Shown here in pieces: positions 24,528-30,803 of a stretch of DNA of 38,375 bases. The stretch comes from a virus (lineage: Duplodnaviria; Heunggongvirae; Uroviricota; Caudoviricetes): the IMG/VR virus record IMGVR_UViG_2541047847_000005. One strand, 5' to 3'. Made by a program: the position numbers and the translations under genes. The notes beneath the pieces were generated by a model. That model saw nothing but the letters and a program-made list of their open reading frames with translations, ran no database searches and was not told the DNA's origin. Positions within the stretch are counted from its first letter, which is position 1. Every line of letters starts with the position of its first letter.

Positions 24528-24778
24528 TGAAAGAATACCGCTATTCCGGCCCGGCCAGCGGCGTCACGCTGTCGGACGGAACCGAAATCCTGCTCTGGCC
24601 GGGGAAGACGGTTTCCCTGCCGGAGGAGCATGACTACGTGAAGGTACTGGTGGCGCTGAAACATCTGACGCCGGTACCTGAAGAGACTAAACCCGCCGGC
24701 ACACCGGCTGTGCAGTCACCAAAGCGCAGAAGCAGCAGTGACAGCGAAGTGAAAACGGAGGACACCCATGGCAGCTAA
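24524..24778 (+). CDS. hypothetical small protein preceding sheath
   Basis: 84 aa; overlaps both neighbours. Confidence 0.45.
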   Translation: MMKEYRYSGPASGVTLSDGTEILLWPGKTVSLPEEHDYVKVLVALKHLTPVPEETKPAGTPAVQSPKRRSSSDSEVKTEDTHGS

Positions 24779-26195
24779 CTATCTGCATGGTCCCGAAACC
24801 ATTGAGGTGGAAAACGGTGCCCGCCCGGTTAAAACGGTGAAATCTGCCGTTATTGGCCTGATTGGTACCGCCCCGATGGGGGATGTCAATACGCTGGTAC
24901 AGTGCCTGTCTGAGAAAGACGCAGCGGCATTTGGCAGCCAGTTCACCGGCTTTACCATTCCGCAGGCGCTGGATGCGATTTATGACCATGGTGCAGGCAC
25001 CGTTCTGGTCATTAACGTCCTCGACCCGGCGAAACATAAAACGGCGATCGAGGATGAGGTGGTTACCTTTGACAAATCGACAGGGCAGGCCAGACTGGCG
25101 CATCCGGTTGTCGCTAATGTGGTGGTGAAAAACAGTGAAGGCAGCACCTCCCACACGGCGAACACGGACTACCGTGTTGATGCGCAGGCGGGTGTGCTCA
25201 CGAACCTGGGCAAGGCTATTGAGGCCGGTGGCAGCGTGAAGGTGAGCTATGAGTACGCGGACCCGTCGAAGGTGACTGCGGCGGACATCATCGGCGGGGT
25301 GAACAGCGCCGGAAACCGAACCGGCATGAAGCTGCTTAACGACAGCTTCAACCTGTACGGCTATTTCGCCAAAATTCTGATTGCGCCGGTGTTCTGCACC
25401 CAGAAGAGTGTCGCAGTTGAGCTTATCGCCATGGCAGAGAAGCTGGGCGCGGTAACCTACATTGATGCGCCTGTCGGTACCACCTTTGCACAGGCTCTGG
25501 CAGGTCGTGGCCCGGAAGGCACCATCAACTTCAATACCAGCTCCGACCGCGTCCGTCTGTGCTACCCGCATGTGAAGGTATACGATCCGGTGACAAACAC
25601 GGAGCGTCTGGAGCCGCTCAGCCAGCGTGCAGCAGGTCTGCGTGCCCGTATCGACCTTGAGAAGGGCTACTGGTGGTCATCCTCCAATCAGGAGATTCTG
25701 GGGATCACCGGCGTGGAGCGCCAGCTGTCCGCGATGATTGATGACCCGCAGAGTGAGGTGAACCTGCTTAACGAACAGGGGATCACCACGGTATTCAGCA
25801 GTTACGGCAGCGGCCTTCGTCTGTGGGGTAACCGGACGGCAGCATGGCCAACGGTCACCCATATGCGTAACTTTGAGAACGTTCGCCGCACCGGTGATGT
25901 GATCAACGAGTCCATTCGTTATTTCAGCCAGCAGTACATCGACATGCCGATTACTCAGGCGCTGATTGATGCACTGACGGAGTCGGTCAACGCCTACGGT
26001 CGCAAAATGACTGGTGATGGTGCGGTACTGGGCTTCCGTTGCTGGTTTGATCCGGCCCGCAATCCGGAGACGGAGCTGGCCGCCGGGCACCTGTTGCTGA
26101 GCTACAAATATACGCCACCACCGCCGCTGGAGCGACTGACGTTTGAGACTGAGATCACCTCGGAATACCTGTTAACCCTGAAAGGGGGCAACTGA
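24768..26195 (+). CDS. contractile tail sheath protein
   Basis: 475 aa; followed by the tube gene with ATGA overlap; order typical of Mu L / P2 FI. Confidence 0.8.
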   Translation: MAANYLHGPETIEVENGARPVKTVKSAVIGLIGTAPMGDVNTLVQCLSEKDAAAFGSQFTGFTIPQALDAIYDHGAGTVLVINVLDPAKHKTAIEDEVVTFDKSTGQARLAHPVVANVVVKNSEGSTSHTANTDYRVDAQAGVLTNLGKAIEAGGSVKVSYEYADPSKVTAADIIGGVNSAGNRTGMKLLNDSFNLYGYFAKILIAPVFCTQKSVAVELIAMAEKLGAVTYIDAPVGTTFAQALAGRGPEGTINFNTSSDRVRLCYPHVKVYDPVTNTERLEPLSQRAAGLRARIDLEKGYWWSSSNQEILGITGVERQLSAMIDDPQSEVNLLNEQGITTVFSSYGSGLRLWGNRTAAWPTVTHMRNFENVRRTGDVINESIRYFSQQYIDMPITQALIDALTESVNAYGRKMTGDGAVLGFRCWFDPARNPETELAAGHLLLSYKYTPPPPLERLTFETEITSEYLLTLKGGN

Positions 26196-26716
26196 TGTCA
26201 AAGATTGAGATAAACCGCATCACGAATGCCAACATCTATCTGGATGGTACTAACCTGCTGGGACGGGCTGAGGAAGTCAAACTCCCCGATGTCTCCATGA
26301 TTATGCAGGAACACAAGGCGCTGGGGATGGTGGGTAAGGTGGAACTCCCGGCTGGTTTTGACAAACTGGAAGGCGAAATCAAATGGAACAGCTTTTACCG
26401 CGATGCGATGCTGTCTGCCGCGAACCCGTACAGGTCGCTGGCACTGCAGTGTCGTTCCAGCGTCCAGCGCTACAGCTCGCAGGGGCTGATTGACGAAATC
26501 CCGCTGGTCACCTTCCTGACGATTATGTTCAAGAAGAACCCGCTGGGGACGTTCAAACAGCACGAGAACGCCGAGTTCTCCAGTAGCTTCACCTGCACGT
26601 ATATCAGACAGGTACTGGATGGTGAAGAGCTGCTGCAACTGGACTATCTGGCCAACATCTTCCGGGTCGGCGGTGTTGATCAACTGACTGACTACCGTAT
26701 CAATATCGGGGGCTGA
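26195..26716 (+). CDS. tail tube protein
   Basis: 173 aa immediately after sheath; order typical of Mu M / P2 FII. Confidence 0.8.
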   Translation: MSKIEINRITNANIYLDGTNLLGRAEEVKLPDVSMIMQEHKALGMVGKVELPAGFDKLEGEIKWNSFYRDAMLSAANPYRSLALQCRSSVQRYSSQGLIDEIPLVTFLTIMFKKNPLGTFKQHENAEFSSSFTCTYIRQVLDGEELLQLDYLANIFRVGGVDQLTDYRINIGG

Positions 26717-26718
26717 CG

Positions 26719-27000
26719 ATGAGTGTTGAACTGACGGATAAAGGAAGACGATGTGCGGCACTGGGCATGTCAAATGGTACGTGGTTTACCCTCCTTGATA
26801 TTCCGGGGGTGGAAACCCTTTTTAATACCCGTAAAACCAATGACCCGATTGACTGCACACGTTCAAAGGCCCGCAAACTGGCGGATTTGATTGAAGCATG
26901 GGAGCCTCCCGACCACTGGTTCTCCGGCACCGGCAAATCTGAGGGAAAGACGCTTCTCATCGCTTTCCTGCGTAACTGCAAGGGGTTTCGCACTTGCTGA
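26719..27000 (+). CDS. hypothetical protein (93 aa)
   Basis: ORF between tube and chaperone genes; followed by a GC hairpin and T-rich run. Confidence 0.4.
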   Translation: MSVELTDKGRRCAALGMSNGTWFTLLDIPGVETLFNTRKTNDPIDCTRSKARKLADLIEAWEPPDHWFSGTGKSEGKTLLIAFLRNCKGFRTC

Positions 27001-27097
27001 CATCACAGGGGCTCCGGCCCCTTCTTCTTAATCTCCTTTAATATCCGTCACGCGCTTCTCCCGACATACTGCCCTGAACTTACACAGGAGCACAATC

Positions 27098-27433
27098 ATG
27101 TCACAGACCCCATCCGATACTTTTAAATTGTCTTATCCCTTCACCACTGCTGCAGGCACCAGAATTGAGCAGGTTGAACTGAAACGCCTGACGGTAAAAG
27201 ACCTGAAGCAGGTGCGCAAAATCAGCAAAAACCCGGCAGACTGGGACGAACCGCTGATTGCCCGCAGTACTGGTCTTCTCCCGGAAGATCTCGACAATAT
27301 GGACCTGGCTGATTACCTGCAGTTACAGAAACGATTTCAGCTCATCACGGGGATGGGTGAGAGCGACAAAGGCGCTGACGCAGGCGCAGGGGCTGCTGGC
27401 GAGATGGTTCCGGTTTCAGCCGGGGGAGATTGA
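27098..27433 (+). CDS. tail assembly chaperone (P2 gpE-like)
   Basis: 111 aa; N-terminal motif LSYPFTTAAGTRIEQVELKRLTVKDLKQV; directly upstream of the tape measure gene. Confidence 0.65.
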   Translation: MSQTPSDTFKLSYPFTTAAGTRIEQVELKRLTVKDLKQVRKISKNPADWDEPLIARSTGLLPEDLDNMDLADYLQLQKRFQLITGMGESDKGADAGAGAAGEMVPVSAGGD

Positions 27434-27515
27434 TGCCCTCGATACTGACGATCTGGAGATGTGGCTGGAGCAGGCTGAAGAGCAAATAAAAAGCGAGTAC
27501 GGCGACAAATCATAA
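27258..27515 (+). CDS. overlapping ORF, candidate frameshift extension of the tail assembly chaperone
   Basis: second frame open across the 3-prime end of the chaperone gene and ending just before the tape measure gene, the conserved position of chaperone frameshift products; slippery site not identified. Confidence 0.35.
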   Translation: MPAVLVFSRKISTIWTWLITCSYRNDFSSSRGWVRATKALTQAQGLLARWFRFQPGEIDALDTDDLEMWLEQAEEQIKSEYGDKS

Positions 27516-27590
27516 TACAGACAGCCGCCAGTAGCGGCTGTTCTGCGTTATCCCCTCACGTCTTTTCACCTTCCCCGGAGGTTAACCACT

Positions 27591-30500
27591 ATGTCGGGAC
27601 AGTTTTCAGTCGGCGTTGTTATCGGCGGGATGATTGGCAGCACATTCCGTTCTGCAATGAGCGGTACCCGCCGTGCGCTTGATTCCCTGAGCGATACCTC
27701 ACGCCGCCTGCAGGAACGTCAGAACGCTTTAACCCGTGCAACAGAACGTTATGGTCAACTGGGTTCTTCCCGGATGCAGCATCTCAACAGCGAGCTGCTG
27801 CGGGTAAGCCGCACCATGGAGCAAATTGAGCGCCAGCAGCGCCGTCTGTCAGCGGCATCCGCTACCAGTGATGCGCTGAAAGCTAACCGCATGGCGCTGT
27901 ATGGTCAGGGGATTGAAGCGTATGGCATGGCTCAGACTGTTTATCATACGGTTTCCCCTGCCGTTCAGCAGTCCATGTTTTTTCAGGACAAAATGATTGA
28001 TATGTCGATCACCGCAAAATATGACAATAAAACGCGGGATGCACTTGCCGGACAGATAAAAGGCTGGGCGCTTAAATACAATCAGTATCAGGATGAGCTG
28101 CAGGAGGCGGTGGGTTCACTCATCAGCGACAATATTGATAATGTGTCAGATATCGGTTTTCTGATGCCGGATATTGCCCGCGCGGCAACGGCAACACGCA
28201 CGTCTGCTCAGGACTGGGCAAAAGTGGCCGCAGTCTGGCAAAACTCCCTGAAAGGTGCGGCCAGAGATTTTGGTGCCGTTCAGAATATTATGGCTTATGC
28301 CGGTGACCAGGGGTCATTTGAAATCCCGGATCAGGTCAAGTGGATGCAGTCCCTGGCCCCAATGATGGCGGGTATTGCCAGTGGAAAAGAGGCTGTTGCT
28401 GAAATCGGGGCCAGTCTCCAGATAGCAAAAATCGGTGCAGGTTCCACCGACGAAGCAGCCAATAATTTTAAAAACTTTCTTACCAAAATTTTTGCCCGCG
28501 ATACTCAGAAACAGTTTGCTGATCTGGGTATTGATTTGCAGGGATCTATTGCGAGTTATAAAGCTGCGGGGATCTCTCCGATTGAAGGGATGTTGAGTGT
28601 TATAGAACGTTACCTCAATGCCAAAAGCCCCGAAGCGCTGGCCGGCTTCAAATCCGCCATGAAAATAAAGAATGATACGGCAAGAGATGAGGCACTTCAG
28701 GCTCTGGCGAAAAACTTTGGTCTGGGTGATATGTTCGCGGATATGCAGGTCATGGCATTTATCCGCCCGATGCTGGCCAACATGGACAGATATCGCGAGA
28801 TCCGCGCCGGTGCTCTCAGGGCTGCGGATAACGATTTGCTTGCCAGTGCTTATGATCAGCGGCTGAAATCTCCCCTTGAAGCCACTAAAACACTTATGGT
28901 CAGCAGTCGCGATCTGGCAATTACGCTGGGCGATCAATTAGCTCCATCTTTTATTTCTTTGACTCAGGAACTGCTTCCACTCATTCAGGGGGCAAAACAC
29001 TGGGTAGCGACTCACCCGCAATTTGTCAGTGGGGCTTTTAAGCTCATCAGTGCGCTCCTTGCGATTAAGATAGCGACTGTTGGTCTCAAACTGGGGCTGA
29101 ATCTCCTTATTTCCCCCTTTGTGAACGTCTGGAAAACTACTGTTTTACTCCGGACCAACTGGCATCGACTGGCTACCGCACTCGGAGAAGGTGGCAAATT
29201 ACGCTGGCTTGTCACTGGATTCAGCCGACTGACCAGCGGAGGACTGAAACTCAGCAAAGTTCTGGCGGGCAGCCTCGTTCGCGGTTTTATGAGCGCTGCA
29301 CGTGCCGTTCTCTGGATTGGGCGAGCGCTGATGATGAATCCCATCGGTCTCGTTATCACCGCTGTCGCGGCAGCAGCTTACCTTATCTACCGCAACTGGG
29401 GGGCTGTCAGTGGTTGGTTTAAACAGCGCTGGGCTGACATTCAGGAAGCCTTTAACGGCGGCATTGTGGGAATTGGTAAGTTGCTGATTAACTGGTCGCC
29501 GGCAGGCCTGCTCTATAAAGCCTTTGCGGCTGCGCTGAAATATTTCGGCGTTGCTCTGCCGGCAAAGTTCACCGACTTCGGTGGCCATCTTATCGACGGT
29601 CTGATTAACGGTATCAAAAACAAATGGGGGTCGCTCAAATCCAGTGTAACCGGAATGGGTGACAGCATCAGTAGCTGGTTTAAACAGTGCTGGGCTGACA
29701 TTCAGGAAGCCTTTAACGGCGGCATTGTGGGAATTGGTAAGTTGCTGATTAACTGGTCGCCGGCAGGCCTGCTCTATAAAGCCTTTGCGGCTGCGCTGAA
29801 ATATTTCGGCGTTACTCTGCCGGCAAAGTTCACCGACTTCGGTGGCCATCTTATCGACGGTCTGATTAACGGTATCAAAAACAAATGGGGGGCGCTCAAA
29901 TCCAGTGTAACCGGAATGGGTGACAGCATCAGTAGCTGGTTTAAACAGTGCTGGGCTGACATTCAGGAAGCCTTTAACGGCGGTATCGCGGGAACTGGTA
30001 AGCTGCTGATTAACTGGTCGCCGGCAGGTCTGCTCTATAAAGCCTTTGCAGCTGCGCTGAAATATCTTGGTGTTGATCTGCCGGCAAAGTTTACCGACTT
30101 CGGTGGCCATCTTGTCGATGGTCTGATTAACGGTATCAAAAACAAATGGGAGTCGCTCAAATCCAGTGTAACCGGAATGGGTGACAGCATCAGTGGCTGG
30201 TTCAGCGAAAAGCTGGGCATTCATTCGCCGAGCCGCGTGTTTATGGGCTTTGGTGACAATATCGCGCAGGGGGCCGCCATTGGCCTGCAGCGGACCACTC
30301 CGCTTGTAGCTCTGGCCGGGCAGCGAATGGCCAGTGAACTGCTCCCCAGAATGCCCGTGAGCATTCAGGGGCCAGAAATACGGGATAACACTTCAGGTGT
30401 TCGCTTCAGTATGCCGTTGCCCGATATCAATGGGTTTATGTCGTCTGCTAAAAATGCGATCGGAGCCGTAATCAATAGTTTGTCTTCCATGCCCGCTATT

Positions 30501-30803
30501 CCGCTCTCCACCCGGGCATCGATTTTACCAGGGCAACGTCTGGCAAATGAGATGACACCGGATGTTCCCCGTATCCCCTCGCCTGAAATCCTGGCTGCCG
30601 GATATTCAGGCCGTGGTGCAGCTGCAACCGGCGGTGGAACGTCTGGTGGTATCCAGGTCAGCTTTAATCCTCAGTTTTTCCTCAATGGCAGGGAAACCAC
30701 AGCGCCTGCAGGACTGACTGGTGCCCTGAATATGAGTCTGCATGAGCTGGAAAAAATGCTGGAGCGTCTGCTGGCTCAGAAACAACGTAAGGAGTACCGC
30801 TGA
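27591..30803 (+). CDS. tail tape measure protein with internal tandem triplication
   Basis: 1070 aa; GGAGG upstream; long helical protein after the chaperone genes; contains 3 near-identical 87-aa repeats. Confidence 0.9.
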   Translation: MSGQFSVGVVIGGMIGSTFRSAMSGTRRALDSLSDTSRRLQERQNALTRATERYGQLGSSRMQHLNSELLRVSRTMEQIERQQRRLSAASATSDALKANRMALYGQGIEAYGMAQTVYHTVSPAVQQSMFFQDKMIDMSITAKYDNKTRDALAGQIKGWALKYNQYQDELQEAVGSLISDNIDNVSDIGFLMPDIARAATATRTSAQDWAKVAAVWQNSLKGAARDFGAVQNIMAYAGDQGSFEIPDQVKWMQSLAPMMAGIASGKEAVAEIGASLQIAKIGAGSTDEAANNFKNFLTKIFARDTQKQFADLGIDLQGSIASYKAAGISPIEGMLSVIERYLNAKSPEALAGFKSAMKIKNDTARDEALQALAKNFGLGDMFADMQVMAFIRPMLANMDRYREIRAGALRAADNDLLASAYDQRLKSPLEATKTLMVSSRDLAITLGDQLAPSFISLTQELLPLIQGAKHWVATHPQFVSGAFKLISALLAIKIATVGLKLGLNLLISPFVNVWKTTVLLRTNWHRLATALGEGGKLRWLVTGFSRLTSGGLKLSKVLAGSLVRGFMSAARAVLWIGRALMMNPIGLVITAVAAAAYLIYRNWGAVSGWFKQRWADIQEAFNGGIVGIGKLLINWSPAGLLYKAFAAALKYFGVALPAKFTDFGGHLIDGLINGIKNKWGSLKSSVTGMGDSISSWFKQCWADIQEAFNGGIVGIGKLLINWSPAGLLYKAFAAALKYFGVTLPAKFTDFGGHLIDGLINGIKNKWGALKSSVTGMGDSISSWFKQCWADIQEAFNGGIAGTGKLLINWSPAGLLYKAFAAALKYLGVDLPAKFTDFGGHLVDGLINGIKNKWESLKSSVTGMGDSISGWFSEKLGIHSPSRVFMGFGDNIAQGAAIGLQRTTPLVALAGQRMASELLPRMPVSIQGPEIRDNTSGVRFSMPLPDINGFMSSAKNAIGAVINSLSSMPAIPLSTRASILPGQRLANEMTPDVPRIPSPEILAAGYSGRGAAATGGGTSGGIQVSFNPQFFLNGRETTAPAGLTGALNMSLHELEKMLERLLAQKQRKEYR
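29415..30197 (+). repeat. 3 tandem copies of a 261-bp in-frame repeat inside the tape measure gene
   Basis: repeat units start at 29415, 29676 and 29937 (TGGTTTAAACAG...); each encodes WFKQ.WADIQEAFNGGI...KNKW..LKSSVTGMGDSIS with few substitutions. Confidence 0.9.

Follow-up and report, generated by a model that had tools for sequence, protein, structure and literature searches.

Which proteins are made from the short interval between the tube and tape measure genes of a BcepMu-like prophage, and how is the second of them reached? The question arises in a 38,375-nucleotide (nt) stretch of viral DNA (IMG/VR record IMGVR_UViG_2541047847_000005; "the window" refers to the whole of this stretch), part of which is the tail module of a BcepMu-like myovirus prophage of Escherichia coli. 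There, a tail assembly chaperone gene (27098-27433) is overlapped by a second open reading frame (ORF; 27258-27515). Frameshifts in tail chaperone genes run in the -1, -2 or +1 direction depending on the phage (PMC5009743). An earlier, sequence-only reading of the window proposed that a programmed frameshift joins the chaperone to the overlapping ORF, placed the event near the chaperone stop codon (segment 27380..27440), and left it unclear which product is made. Our comparison with related loci supports the frameshift and points to a different site, a +1 shift at a UUU_C tetramer 32 codons upstream of the stop, which would give a long form of the chaperone.

Selection passes from the chaperone frame to the +1 frame

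The comparison covered 79 close relatives from IMG/VR, representing 62 distinct sequences, and a diverse set of 79 loci drawn from one-genome-per-species contigs of gamma- and beta-proteobacteria, to which individual phage records were added (~160 related loci in total). The overlapping ORF lies in the +1 (equivalently -2) frame relative to the chaperone, as first reported, and ends just before the tape measure gene, 75 nt upstream of the ATG at 27591. Comparison with related phages shows that it is no chance opening: in every related locus examined, the ORF is conserved in both frame and sequence. Across the ~160 loci its changes are mostly synonymous and no start codon is conserved, and in the window it ends, at 27515, before the tape measure gene, as the overlapping ORF of a lambda-type chaperone pair does. 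All 74 of the diverse loci that could be scored for both chaperone and extension motifs carry the extension in the +1 frame.

Selection was measured as the pooled pairwise ratio of non-synonymous to synonymous differences (pN/pS), for each segment and frame, among the close relatives (Table 1). Constraint passes from frame 0 to frame +1 between 27338 and 27353. On the chaperone side, only residues 1 to ~85 are constrained; the Gly/Ala-rich tail beyond ~27353 evolves neutrally, and the frame-0 stop codon is found in three different places in close relatives (equivalents of 27368, 27410 and 27431). Despite this moving stop, the +1 peptide GW.RATK.L.QAQGLLARWFRFQPGEIDALDTDDLEMWLEQAEEQIK is retained in all close relatives. 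Substitutions in the extension stretch leave the +1-frame residues unchanged but alter the reading of frame 0: ttc cgg, ttt aga and ttc agg, for instance, are three spellings of Phe-Arg in the +1 frame, but give Pro, stop and Gln, respectively, in frame 0. Judged by this pattern, the +1 ORF is a real second coding region from ~27353 onward, held by purifying selection. The upstream part of the ORF as listed (27258..27335) is probably never translated in the +1 frame, since its pN/pS is 1.4, the point at which the ORF opens differs widely between relatives, and no start codon is conserved.

The chaperone belongs to the P2 gpE family and the +1 region resembles P2 E'

The product of 27098-27433, named 'phage tail assembly protein' in RefSeq, matches Pfam family PF10109 Phage_TAC_7 (the P2 gpE / Mu gp41 / gp14 family) over residues 8-81 with a score of 78.7 bits (gathering threshold 25); for the predicted fusion with the +1 region, the score is 83.2 bits. 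An NCBIfam search gave no match for the chaperone, the extension or the fusion, and a PDB sequence search with the fusion profile returned nothing meaningful. The gene sits between the tube and tape measure genes, which is the position of the chaperone pair in the lambda G/GT paradigm.

The extension matches phrog_8286 (E=8e-34), and its C-terminal part resembles P2 E' (window FRFQPGEIDALDTDDLEMWLEQA, P2 FHWPPSELYPMSLTELITWREKA). A profile built from 22 extensions aligned collinearly with the P2 E' tail in hhalign (E=4e-5, probability 70%). The fusion scored 18.3 bits against Pfam PF06528 Phage_P2_GpE (E=0.0017), below that family's gathering threshold of 23, and similarity of the extension to that of Mu was not significant (hhalign E=0.028). 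By profile comparison, then, the +1 region is homologous to the P2 E' extension. Counted from the Phe residue discussed below, the extension is 54-61 amino acids (aa) long in 23 of the 24 lineages sampled, and a conserved Trp follows 3-6 residues after this Phe (27354-27356 in the window). Gene position, P2 E' homology and frame-specific selection all support a programmed frameshift that joins the chaperone to the +1 ORF.

Relatives place the probable shift at a conserved UUU_C tetramer

An in-frame TTT followed by C is present at the same codon in 75 of 75 loci scored by script (74 diverse loci plus the window), approximately eight codons after the Asp of a DLAD motif (seven in one locus). 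TTT_C also occurs in two further loci (L154 and L167), in phages Bise and phiE255, and in BcepMu, where it reads TCC TTT CGC. Overall, UUU_C was found in 77 of the 83 diverse loci that could be scored and in all 62 distinct close relatives. The surrounding codons differ between lineages: cga TTT Cag in enterics, Salmonella, Pectobacterium and Photorhabdus; cga TTT Ctg in Ralstonia, Pandoraea and Verminephrobacter; gtg TTT Cgg in Pseudomonas; tcc TTT Cgc in BcepMu and Acidovorax; and gcc TTT Cgc in others. At the TTT_C loci the residue after Phe varies (Gln, Leu or Arg), but the first base of its codon is always C. In GC-rich hosts the ratio of TTC to TTT is 10:1 or higher, and among neighbouring genes it reaches 25:1, but the site stays TTT. 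The joint probability that all sites are TTT is ~1e-13 over 21 clusters (sharing <60% identity); a point against our interpretation is that joint probabilities of this kind treat clusters as independent, which phylogeny only approximates.

Stop codons in relatives bracket the shift on both sides. Upstream, Ralstonia-type loci have a +1-frame TGA three codons before the TTT; downstream, one locus (L137) has a frame-0 stop two codons after it (ggg ttt ttt cgc tga), and several other lineages have a frame-0 stop 6-9 codons after it. Mapped to the window, the shift therefore falls within 27327-27341, and the only conserved feature inside this bracket is the in-frame UUU followed by C. The conserved slippery sequence that the lambda paradigm would place in the overlap is thus a +1 tetramer and not a -1 heptamer. 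As at other UUU_Y sites, an in-frame UUU is followed by a pyrimidine; downstream, the +1 frame stays open as far as 27515, with constraint from 27353.

We consider a +1 programmed frameshift at UUU_C, giving a long chaperone, to be the best account of the locus, with a probability of roughly 0.8. The most likely product is a 138-aa E+E' fusion with the junction ...QKRF/SSSRGW... (the slash marks the shift). Its predicted sequence is M1-F80 followed by SSSRGWVRATKALTQAQGLLARWFRFQPGEIDALDTDDLEMWLEQAEEQIKSEYGDKS, with a predicted junction of ...LQLQKRF/SSSRGWVR... in which Phe is read once. The tryptic peptides predicted for the +1 extension include ALTQAQGLLAR and FQPGEIDALDTDDLEMWLEQAEEQIK. The relatives thus move the event away from the vicinity of the chaperone stop. 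Because UUU_C at 27335-27338 lies outside 27380-27440, a reporter built from that segment would give a false negative.

Several further observations weigh against a shift at UUU_C. RNA structure prediction gave no signal near the site (z = -0.39 for the downstream 103 nt and +1.37 for the upstream 61 nt), and no Shine-Dalgarno (SD)-like element was found in the sequence upstream of the slip site (UUACAGAAACGA). The zero-frame A-site codon is CAG, which is not rare. In both its upstream sequence and its A-site codon, the window departs from prfB-type sites. With no stimulator found and an A-site codon that is not rare, efficiency could therefore be very low. In addition, conservation is poor in the five +1 codons that separate UUC from the conserved Trp, so that selection alone cannot separate UUU_C from a slightly later shift, and it is the relatives that decide. 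Finally, six Pseudomonas loci keep the +1 extension with UUG_C in place of UUU_C, and UUU_C is therefore not strictly required across the family.

These six loci (L142, L155, L157, L160, L164 and L165; Pseudomonas spp.) read gag gtg TTG cgg gaa at this position, and tRNALeu on UUG_C would be unable to re-pair. An SD-like GAGGUG, which among the relatives is confined to Pseudomonas, lies exactly 3 nt upstream of CGG_G in the same loci, which is the prfB geometry, and CGG_G may be an alternative, candidate +1 site there. This exception leaves the reading of the window unaffected. It should also be noted that three lineages have UUU_UUU_C, where re-pairing by -2 is also conceivable. At the window site a -2 route is closed, as no tRNA at or beside the site can re-pair two bases back.

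With UUU in the P site, the codon immediately before it would be in the E site. This preceding codon is CGA in every lineage that has Arg here, including those in GC-rich hosts, with one CGG exception (L118). From local Arg codon use, the joint probability is ~2e-5 over 5 clusters. An effect of this rare codon on slippage, exerted from the E site, is possible.

Table 1. Window coordinates of the features discussed, and pN/pS by segment among close relatives.
Feature	Coordinates	Strand	Details
Sheath gene	24768-26195	+	ORF list, profile searches
Tube gene	26195-26716	+	ORF list, profile searches
Small DUF7739-like ORF	26719-27000	+	93 aa
Chaperone gene, frame 0	27098-27433	+	111 aa, PF10109
+1-frame ORF as listed	27258-27515	+	TTG start at 27258; stop TAA 27513-27515
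Upstream part of listed +1 ORF	27258..27335	+	+1-frame pN/pS 1.4
Codons around proposed site			AAA 27329-31, CGA 27332-34, UUU 27335-37, CAG 27338-40
CGA codon	27332..27334	+	E-site position when UUU in P site
Proposed +1 shift site UUU_C	27335..27338	+	UUU 27335-27337, next C 27338
Predicted E'-like extension	27336..27515	+	F80, S81 to S138, stop TAA 27513-27515
Predicted fusion	join(27098..27337,27339..27515)		138 aa, about 15.5 kDa
-1 frame open stretch	27379..27489	+	36 codons 27379-27486 and stop at 27487
G5 run	27422..27426	+	just before chaperone stop
Tape measure protein gene	27591-30803	+	1070 aa, PF10145; RefSeq 'phage tail tape measure protein'; ATG at 27591
gpU-like protein gene	from 30803	+	
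pN/pS segment	27098-27333		frame 0, 0.22; frame +1, 1.4
pN/pS segment	27338-27352		frame 0, 0.56; frame +1, 1.4
pN/pS segment	27353-27409		frame 0, 1.1; frame +1, 0.29
pN/pS segment	27410-27430		frame 0, not defined (pS = 0); frame +1, 0.025
pN/pS segment	27432-27512		frame 0, 1.0; frame +1, 0.35

Alternative explanations of the overlap

A slip slightly downstream of UUU_C, in which tRNAGly would move +1 on GGG_A at 27350-27353 (...QLITG/WVRATK...), would enter the +1 frame right before the conserved Trp. This position fits the selection data, as frame 0 is moderately constrained up to the TG at 27347-27352 (pN/pS 0.56) and the Trp at 27354-27356 is the first strongly conserved +1 residue; re-pairing from GGG to GGA is also possible for tRNAGly(UCC). 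However, GGG_A is not conserved even among enterobacterial relatives, which have GGC_C (L079), GGA_U (Photorhabdus) or AGC_A (Salmonella), and in many lineages (e.g. L137, L136, L131 and L145) a frame-0 stop precedes the equivalent position. We regard a slip at GGG_A as improbable.

We give the same low weight to an arrangement with no frameshift, in which the +1 ORF would be initiated internally, e.g. at GTG 27357 after GGGGA, and encode a separate protein of ~52 aa. PHROG family 8286 is made of separately called small ORFs, and BcepMu gp42, phiE255 gp16 and a hypothetical protein of Komp_PAO1_1 are all annotated separately. However, close relatives have GCA in place of GTG 27357; in Ralstonia, Salmonella and Pseudomonas the candidate starts are different ones or are lacking; and the conserved Trp, with the residues preceding it, is upstream of any start that is shared. 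There is no conserved start codon, and internal initiation leaves both the invariant TTT_C and the uniform 54-61 aa tail unexplained. Furthermore, the homologous P2 and Mu extensions are known as fusions.

Fainter still are the prospects of a Mu-type -2 slip of tRNAGly on the G5 run close to the chaperone stop (CC_GGG_GGA_G; ...VSAGG/EIDALD..., predicted junction ...VPVSAGGEIDALD). The run lies inside the segment indicated by the sequence-only reading and is similar to CGG_GGG_CGA, the site in Mu that has been verified by experiment and that likewise gives access to the +1/-2 frame. Against it, constraint in the +1 frame is strong already ~23 codons (~70 nt) upstream of the run (pN/pS 0.29 and 0.025), and in most relatives the run lies beyond the frame-0 stop (TAG at the 27410 equivalent, or a stop at the 27368 equivalent in L004/L006). 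The run itself is not conserved: in its place L077/L079 have ccgagtgag and Salmonella has cccagtgaa, with the extension retained in these loci, and BcepMu and the Ralstonia and Pseudomonas relatives lack the run. The Mu-type route was rejected on these grounds.

A -1 frameshift into the 36-codon ORF at 27379-27486 has next to no chance of being correct. This frame is indeed open across the chaperone stop in the window, but for 18 of its 36 codons, up to the stop at 27487, and not for the ~30 codons first reported. As the sequence-only reading noted, no canonical -1 heptamer leads into an extension; the sole in-frame X_XXY_YYZ is A_AAC_CCG at 27229, which is inside the Pfam domain and has a -1 stop soon after it. 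The -1 product is ruled out because pN/pS in this frame is ~1 or higher in every segment (1.0 to 6 overall, 1.8 to 6 within 27379..27489) and because the length past the chaperone stop ranges from 1 to 458 codons among relatives. The peptide is rich in Arg, Trp and Cys and has no homologues. By these measures the -1 frame is non-coding, and the question of which product is made turns in favour of the +1 frame.

An assembly error or a decayed prophage, with one ORF split by an indel, can be set aside just as firmly: although 138-aa single-ORF versions exist in databases, they join at differing, unrelated points, often with one G lost from the G5 run and mostly in error-prone assemblies, and 641 complete E. 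coli genomes, as well as all lineages examined, have the two-frame arrangement. Among the fused versions, seven are exactly 138 aa and others are 129-194 aa, with scattered junctions. Those labelled P0003-P0009 have lost one G from the G5 run or have indels elsewhere, and most derive from Logan or ENA assemblies. They look like indel errors that mimic an in-frame fusion, with the G5 run as an assembly-indel hotspot. No sequence in the protein databases had the junction predicted for a +1 shift at UUU_C.

Proposed mechanism

From the comparison we infer that ribosomes slip at UUU_C, and that they do so in the +1 direction and not by some other route into that frame; the efficiency of the event and its role in assembly are inferred in the same way. 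Most ribosomes would stay in frame and produce the short chaperone, the last ~25 residues of which are unconstrained. A minority would slip +1 with peptidyl-tRNAPhe in the P site on UUU 27335-27337. The anticodon GAA would give up its G:U wobble pair and re-pair with the overlapping UUC at 27336-27338, gaining a G:C pair, and decoding would resume at AGC 27339-27341 and continue in the +1 frame to the TAA at 27513. A survey with an E. coli cell-free assay lists TTT_C with the tetramer types that characterize its most efficient +1 sites (bioRxiv 10.1101/2025.10.02.679949).

The functional model for such a chaperone pair comes from lambda gpG / gpGT (PMC5009743). If the pair works as lambda G/GT and P2 E/E+E' do, the N-terminal domain common to both products would cover the tape measure protein, which is presumably their client, and the extension would bring in the tube subunit. 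The efficiency of the shift would then fix the ratio of short to long product.

Relation to known frameshift systems

The closest parallel is P2, with its gpE / gpE+E' pair. Both chaperones belong to PF10109, the two share their gene order (FI, FII, E, T, U in P2), and the extensions are homologous (..FHWPPSEL...W.EKA in the window, ..FRFQPGEI...WLEQA in P2). In P2, too, the tRNA that slips is paired with UUU (Phe) where the domain ends, within ~3 profile positions of Phe80 in the window. The two differ in that P2 shifts -1 at a canonical U-rich heptamer, GGU_UUU_UUG, seven codons before the E stop, whereas the window would reach a +1 extension from UUU_C, a tetramer standing alone 32 codons ahead of the stop. 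The extension in the window also falls below the Pfam Phage_P2_GpE threshold.

The records of P2 and Mu both annotate chaperone fusions by frameshift (-1 and -2, respectively), and the Mu gp41 / gp41-42 fusion and its -2 frameshift were reportedly verified by Xu et al. 2004. The Mu extension is in the same relative frame as that of the window (+1 = -2) and precedes the tape measure gene, and Mu gp41 has a distantly related chaperone domain, which scores 24.7 bits against PF10109, slightly short of the cut-off, and also matches PF23746. In contrast to the window, Mu slips two bases back on CGG_GGG_CGA, for which the look-alike G5 run is not the site, and the hhalign comparison of the two extensions (E=0.028) was not significant.

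In lambda, a -1 shift on G_GGA_AAG occurs at about 3-4%. As in the window, lambda gpG / gpGT are two products read from frames that overlap, located between the genes for the major tail protein and the tape measure, but the proteins have no sequence similarity to those described here.

Pasteurella phage AFS-2018a (L086, ~1700-1900), a relative within the chaperone family, has its extension in the -1 frame; the canonical heptamer A_AAG_GGA that leads into it is found directly at the stop, and the short product alone is annotated in the record. Together with P2 and Mu, the sequences indicate that the PF10109 family reaches the same architecture by -1, -2 and +1 shifts. A single chaperone family would thus have switched the direction of its frameshift in evolution and kept its protein architecture.

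The tetramer itself has precedents outside phage tails. UUU_Y +1 sites include the E. coli argI error site, Yersinia YopN-TyeA and influenza A PA-X (UCC_UUU_CGU); in these, P-site tRNAPhe moves from UUU to UUC or UUU, there is no obvious stimulator, and efficiency is low yet functional (PMC5009743). The UCC_UUU_CGC of BcepMu is nearly identical to the PA-X cassette, although the argI, YopN-TyeA and PA-X genes are unrelated to tail chaperones. The window would combine a known strategy, the chaperone frameshift, with the uncommon +1 direction, and use of UUU_C by PF10109 tail chaperones was not described in the papers and records searched.

Combining these elements, the balance tips slightly towards the following broader picture. 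A large clade of P2-E/Mu-gp41-type chaperones (BcepMu-like, in gamma- and beta-proteobacteria) would use a minimal, apparently stimulator-free +1 shift at UUU_C, the PA-X tetramer, on a Phe codon near the position at which P2 slips -1, so that one family shifts by -1, -2 and +1 near the same point. The conserved rare CGA may in addition be an undescribed E-site enhancer. Such a clade would offer a +1 site that occurs naturally in bacteria, is deeply conserved and has no detectable stimulator; the output ratio of this site would matter for tail assembly, and it is easily tested in E. coli.

Annotation of the chaperone in public records

The fusion was not annotated in the records examined for RefSeq E. 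coli genome H4, PhiKM, KP12, phiE255, Bise and Komp_PAO1_1. In H4, one of the 641 matching genomes, the 111-aa product is the only one annotated at the locus. The gene arrangement of the window matches gp41/gp42/gp43 of BcepMu, a phage of the same genus, Bcepmuvirus, in which PhiKM is also placed. The BcepMu record (AY539836; L088, 6603-7364) annotates gp42 as lambda-G-like and gp43 as a slippage product, with slippage between gp42 and gp43. Our analysis indicates that gp42 is the +1 E' extension of gp41, predicted to be reached through TCC_TTT_CGC, and that gp43 is an unconstrained frame-0 read-on; the slippage annotation looks wrong.

The long chaperone form is therefore missing or mis-assigned in every public record inspected (one RefSeq genome and six phage records). 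Annotation could be corrected by linking the two frames at the conserved TTT_C, which is in frame and ~eight codons downstream of the DLAD motif. The authors of the KS10 paper sought a frameshift site and found none. The literature that we searched held no description of a +1 site for BcepMu-like chaperones; whether Xu et al. 2004 lists this clade lay outside that search.

An 8241-bp contig labelled Arthrobacter sp. GMC3 (NZ_PJIO01000028.1; L089) carries this enterobacterial prophage tail region, the chaperone-plus-extension of which is 84% identical to that of the window, with an identical slip-site context. This contig is probably contamination of the Arthrobacter assembly.

Gene order and other features of the tail module

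The 1-kb stretch around the locus shares 98.9% identity with Escherichia phage PhiKM (genus Bcepmuvirus) and was found in 641 of 5426 complete E. coli genomes. The order of the surrounding genes is given in Table 1. Between the tube and chaperone genes lies a 93-aa ORF (26719-27000) that matches DUF7739 below the cut-off and phrog_1239. A terminator-like hairpin with a T-rich tail (27007-27022) is located 3' of this ORF, which could be a moron-like insert within the tail operon.

A second hairpin (27521-27541; 9-bp stem with 6 G-C pairs) is present in the 75-nt gap between the extension stop and the tape measure ATG, and its stem sequence, cagccgcc, is found again in most relatives. This hairpin might serve as an attenuator or affect the stability of the mRNA.

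Within the tape measure gene, a unit of 261 bp (87 aa) is repeated in tandem at 29407-30202, in 3.0 copies that are 95% matching. The GenBank record of PhiKM has a sequencing gap within its tape measure gene, which was probably caused by this repeat. A change in the copy number of the repeat would alter tail length.

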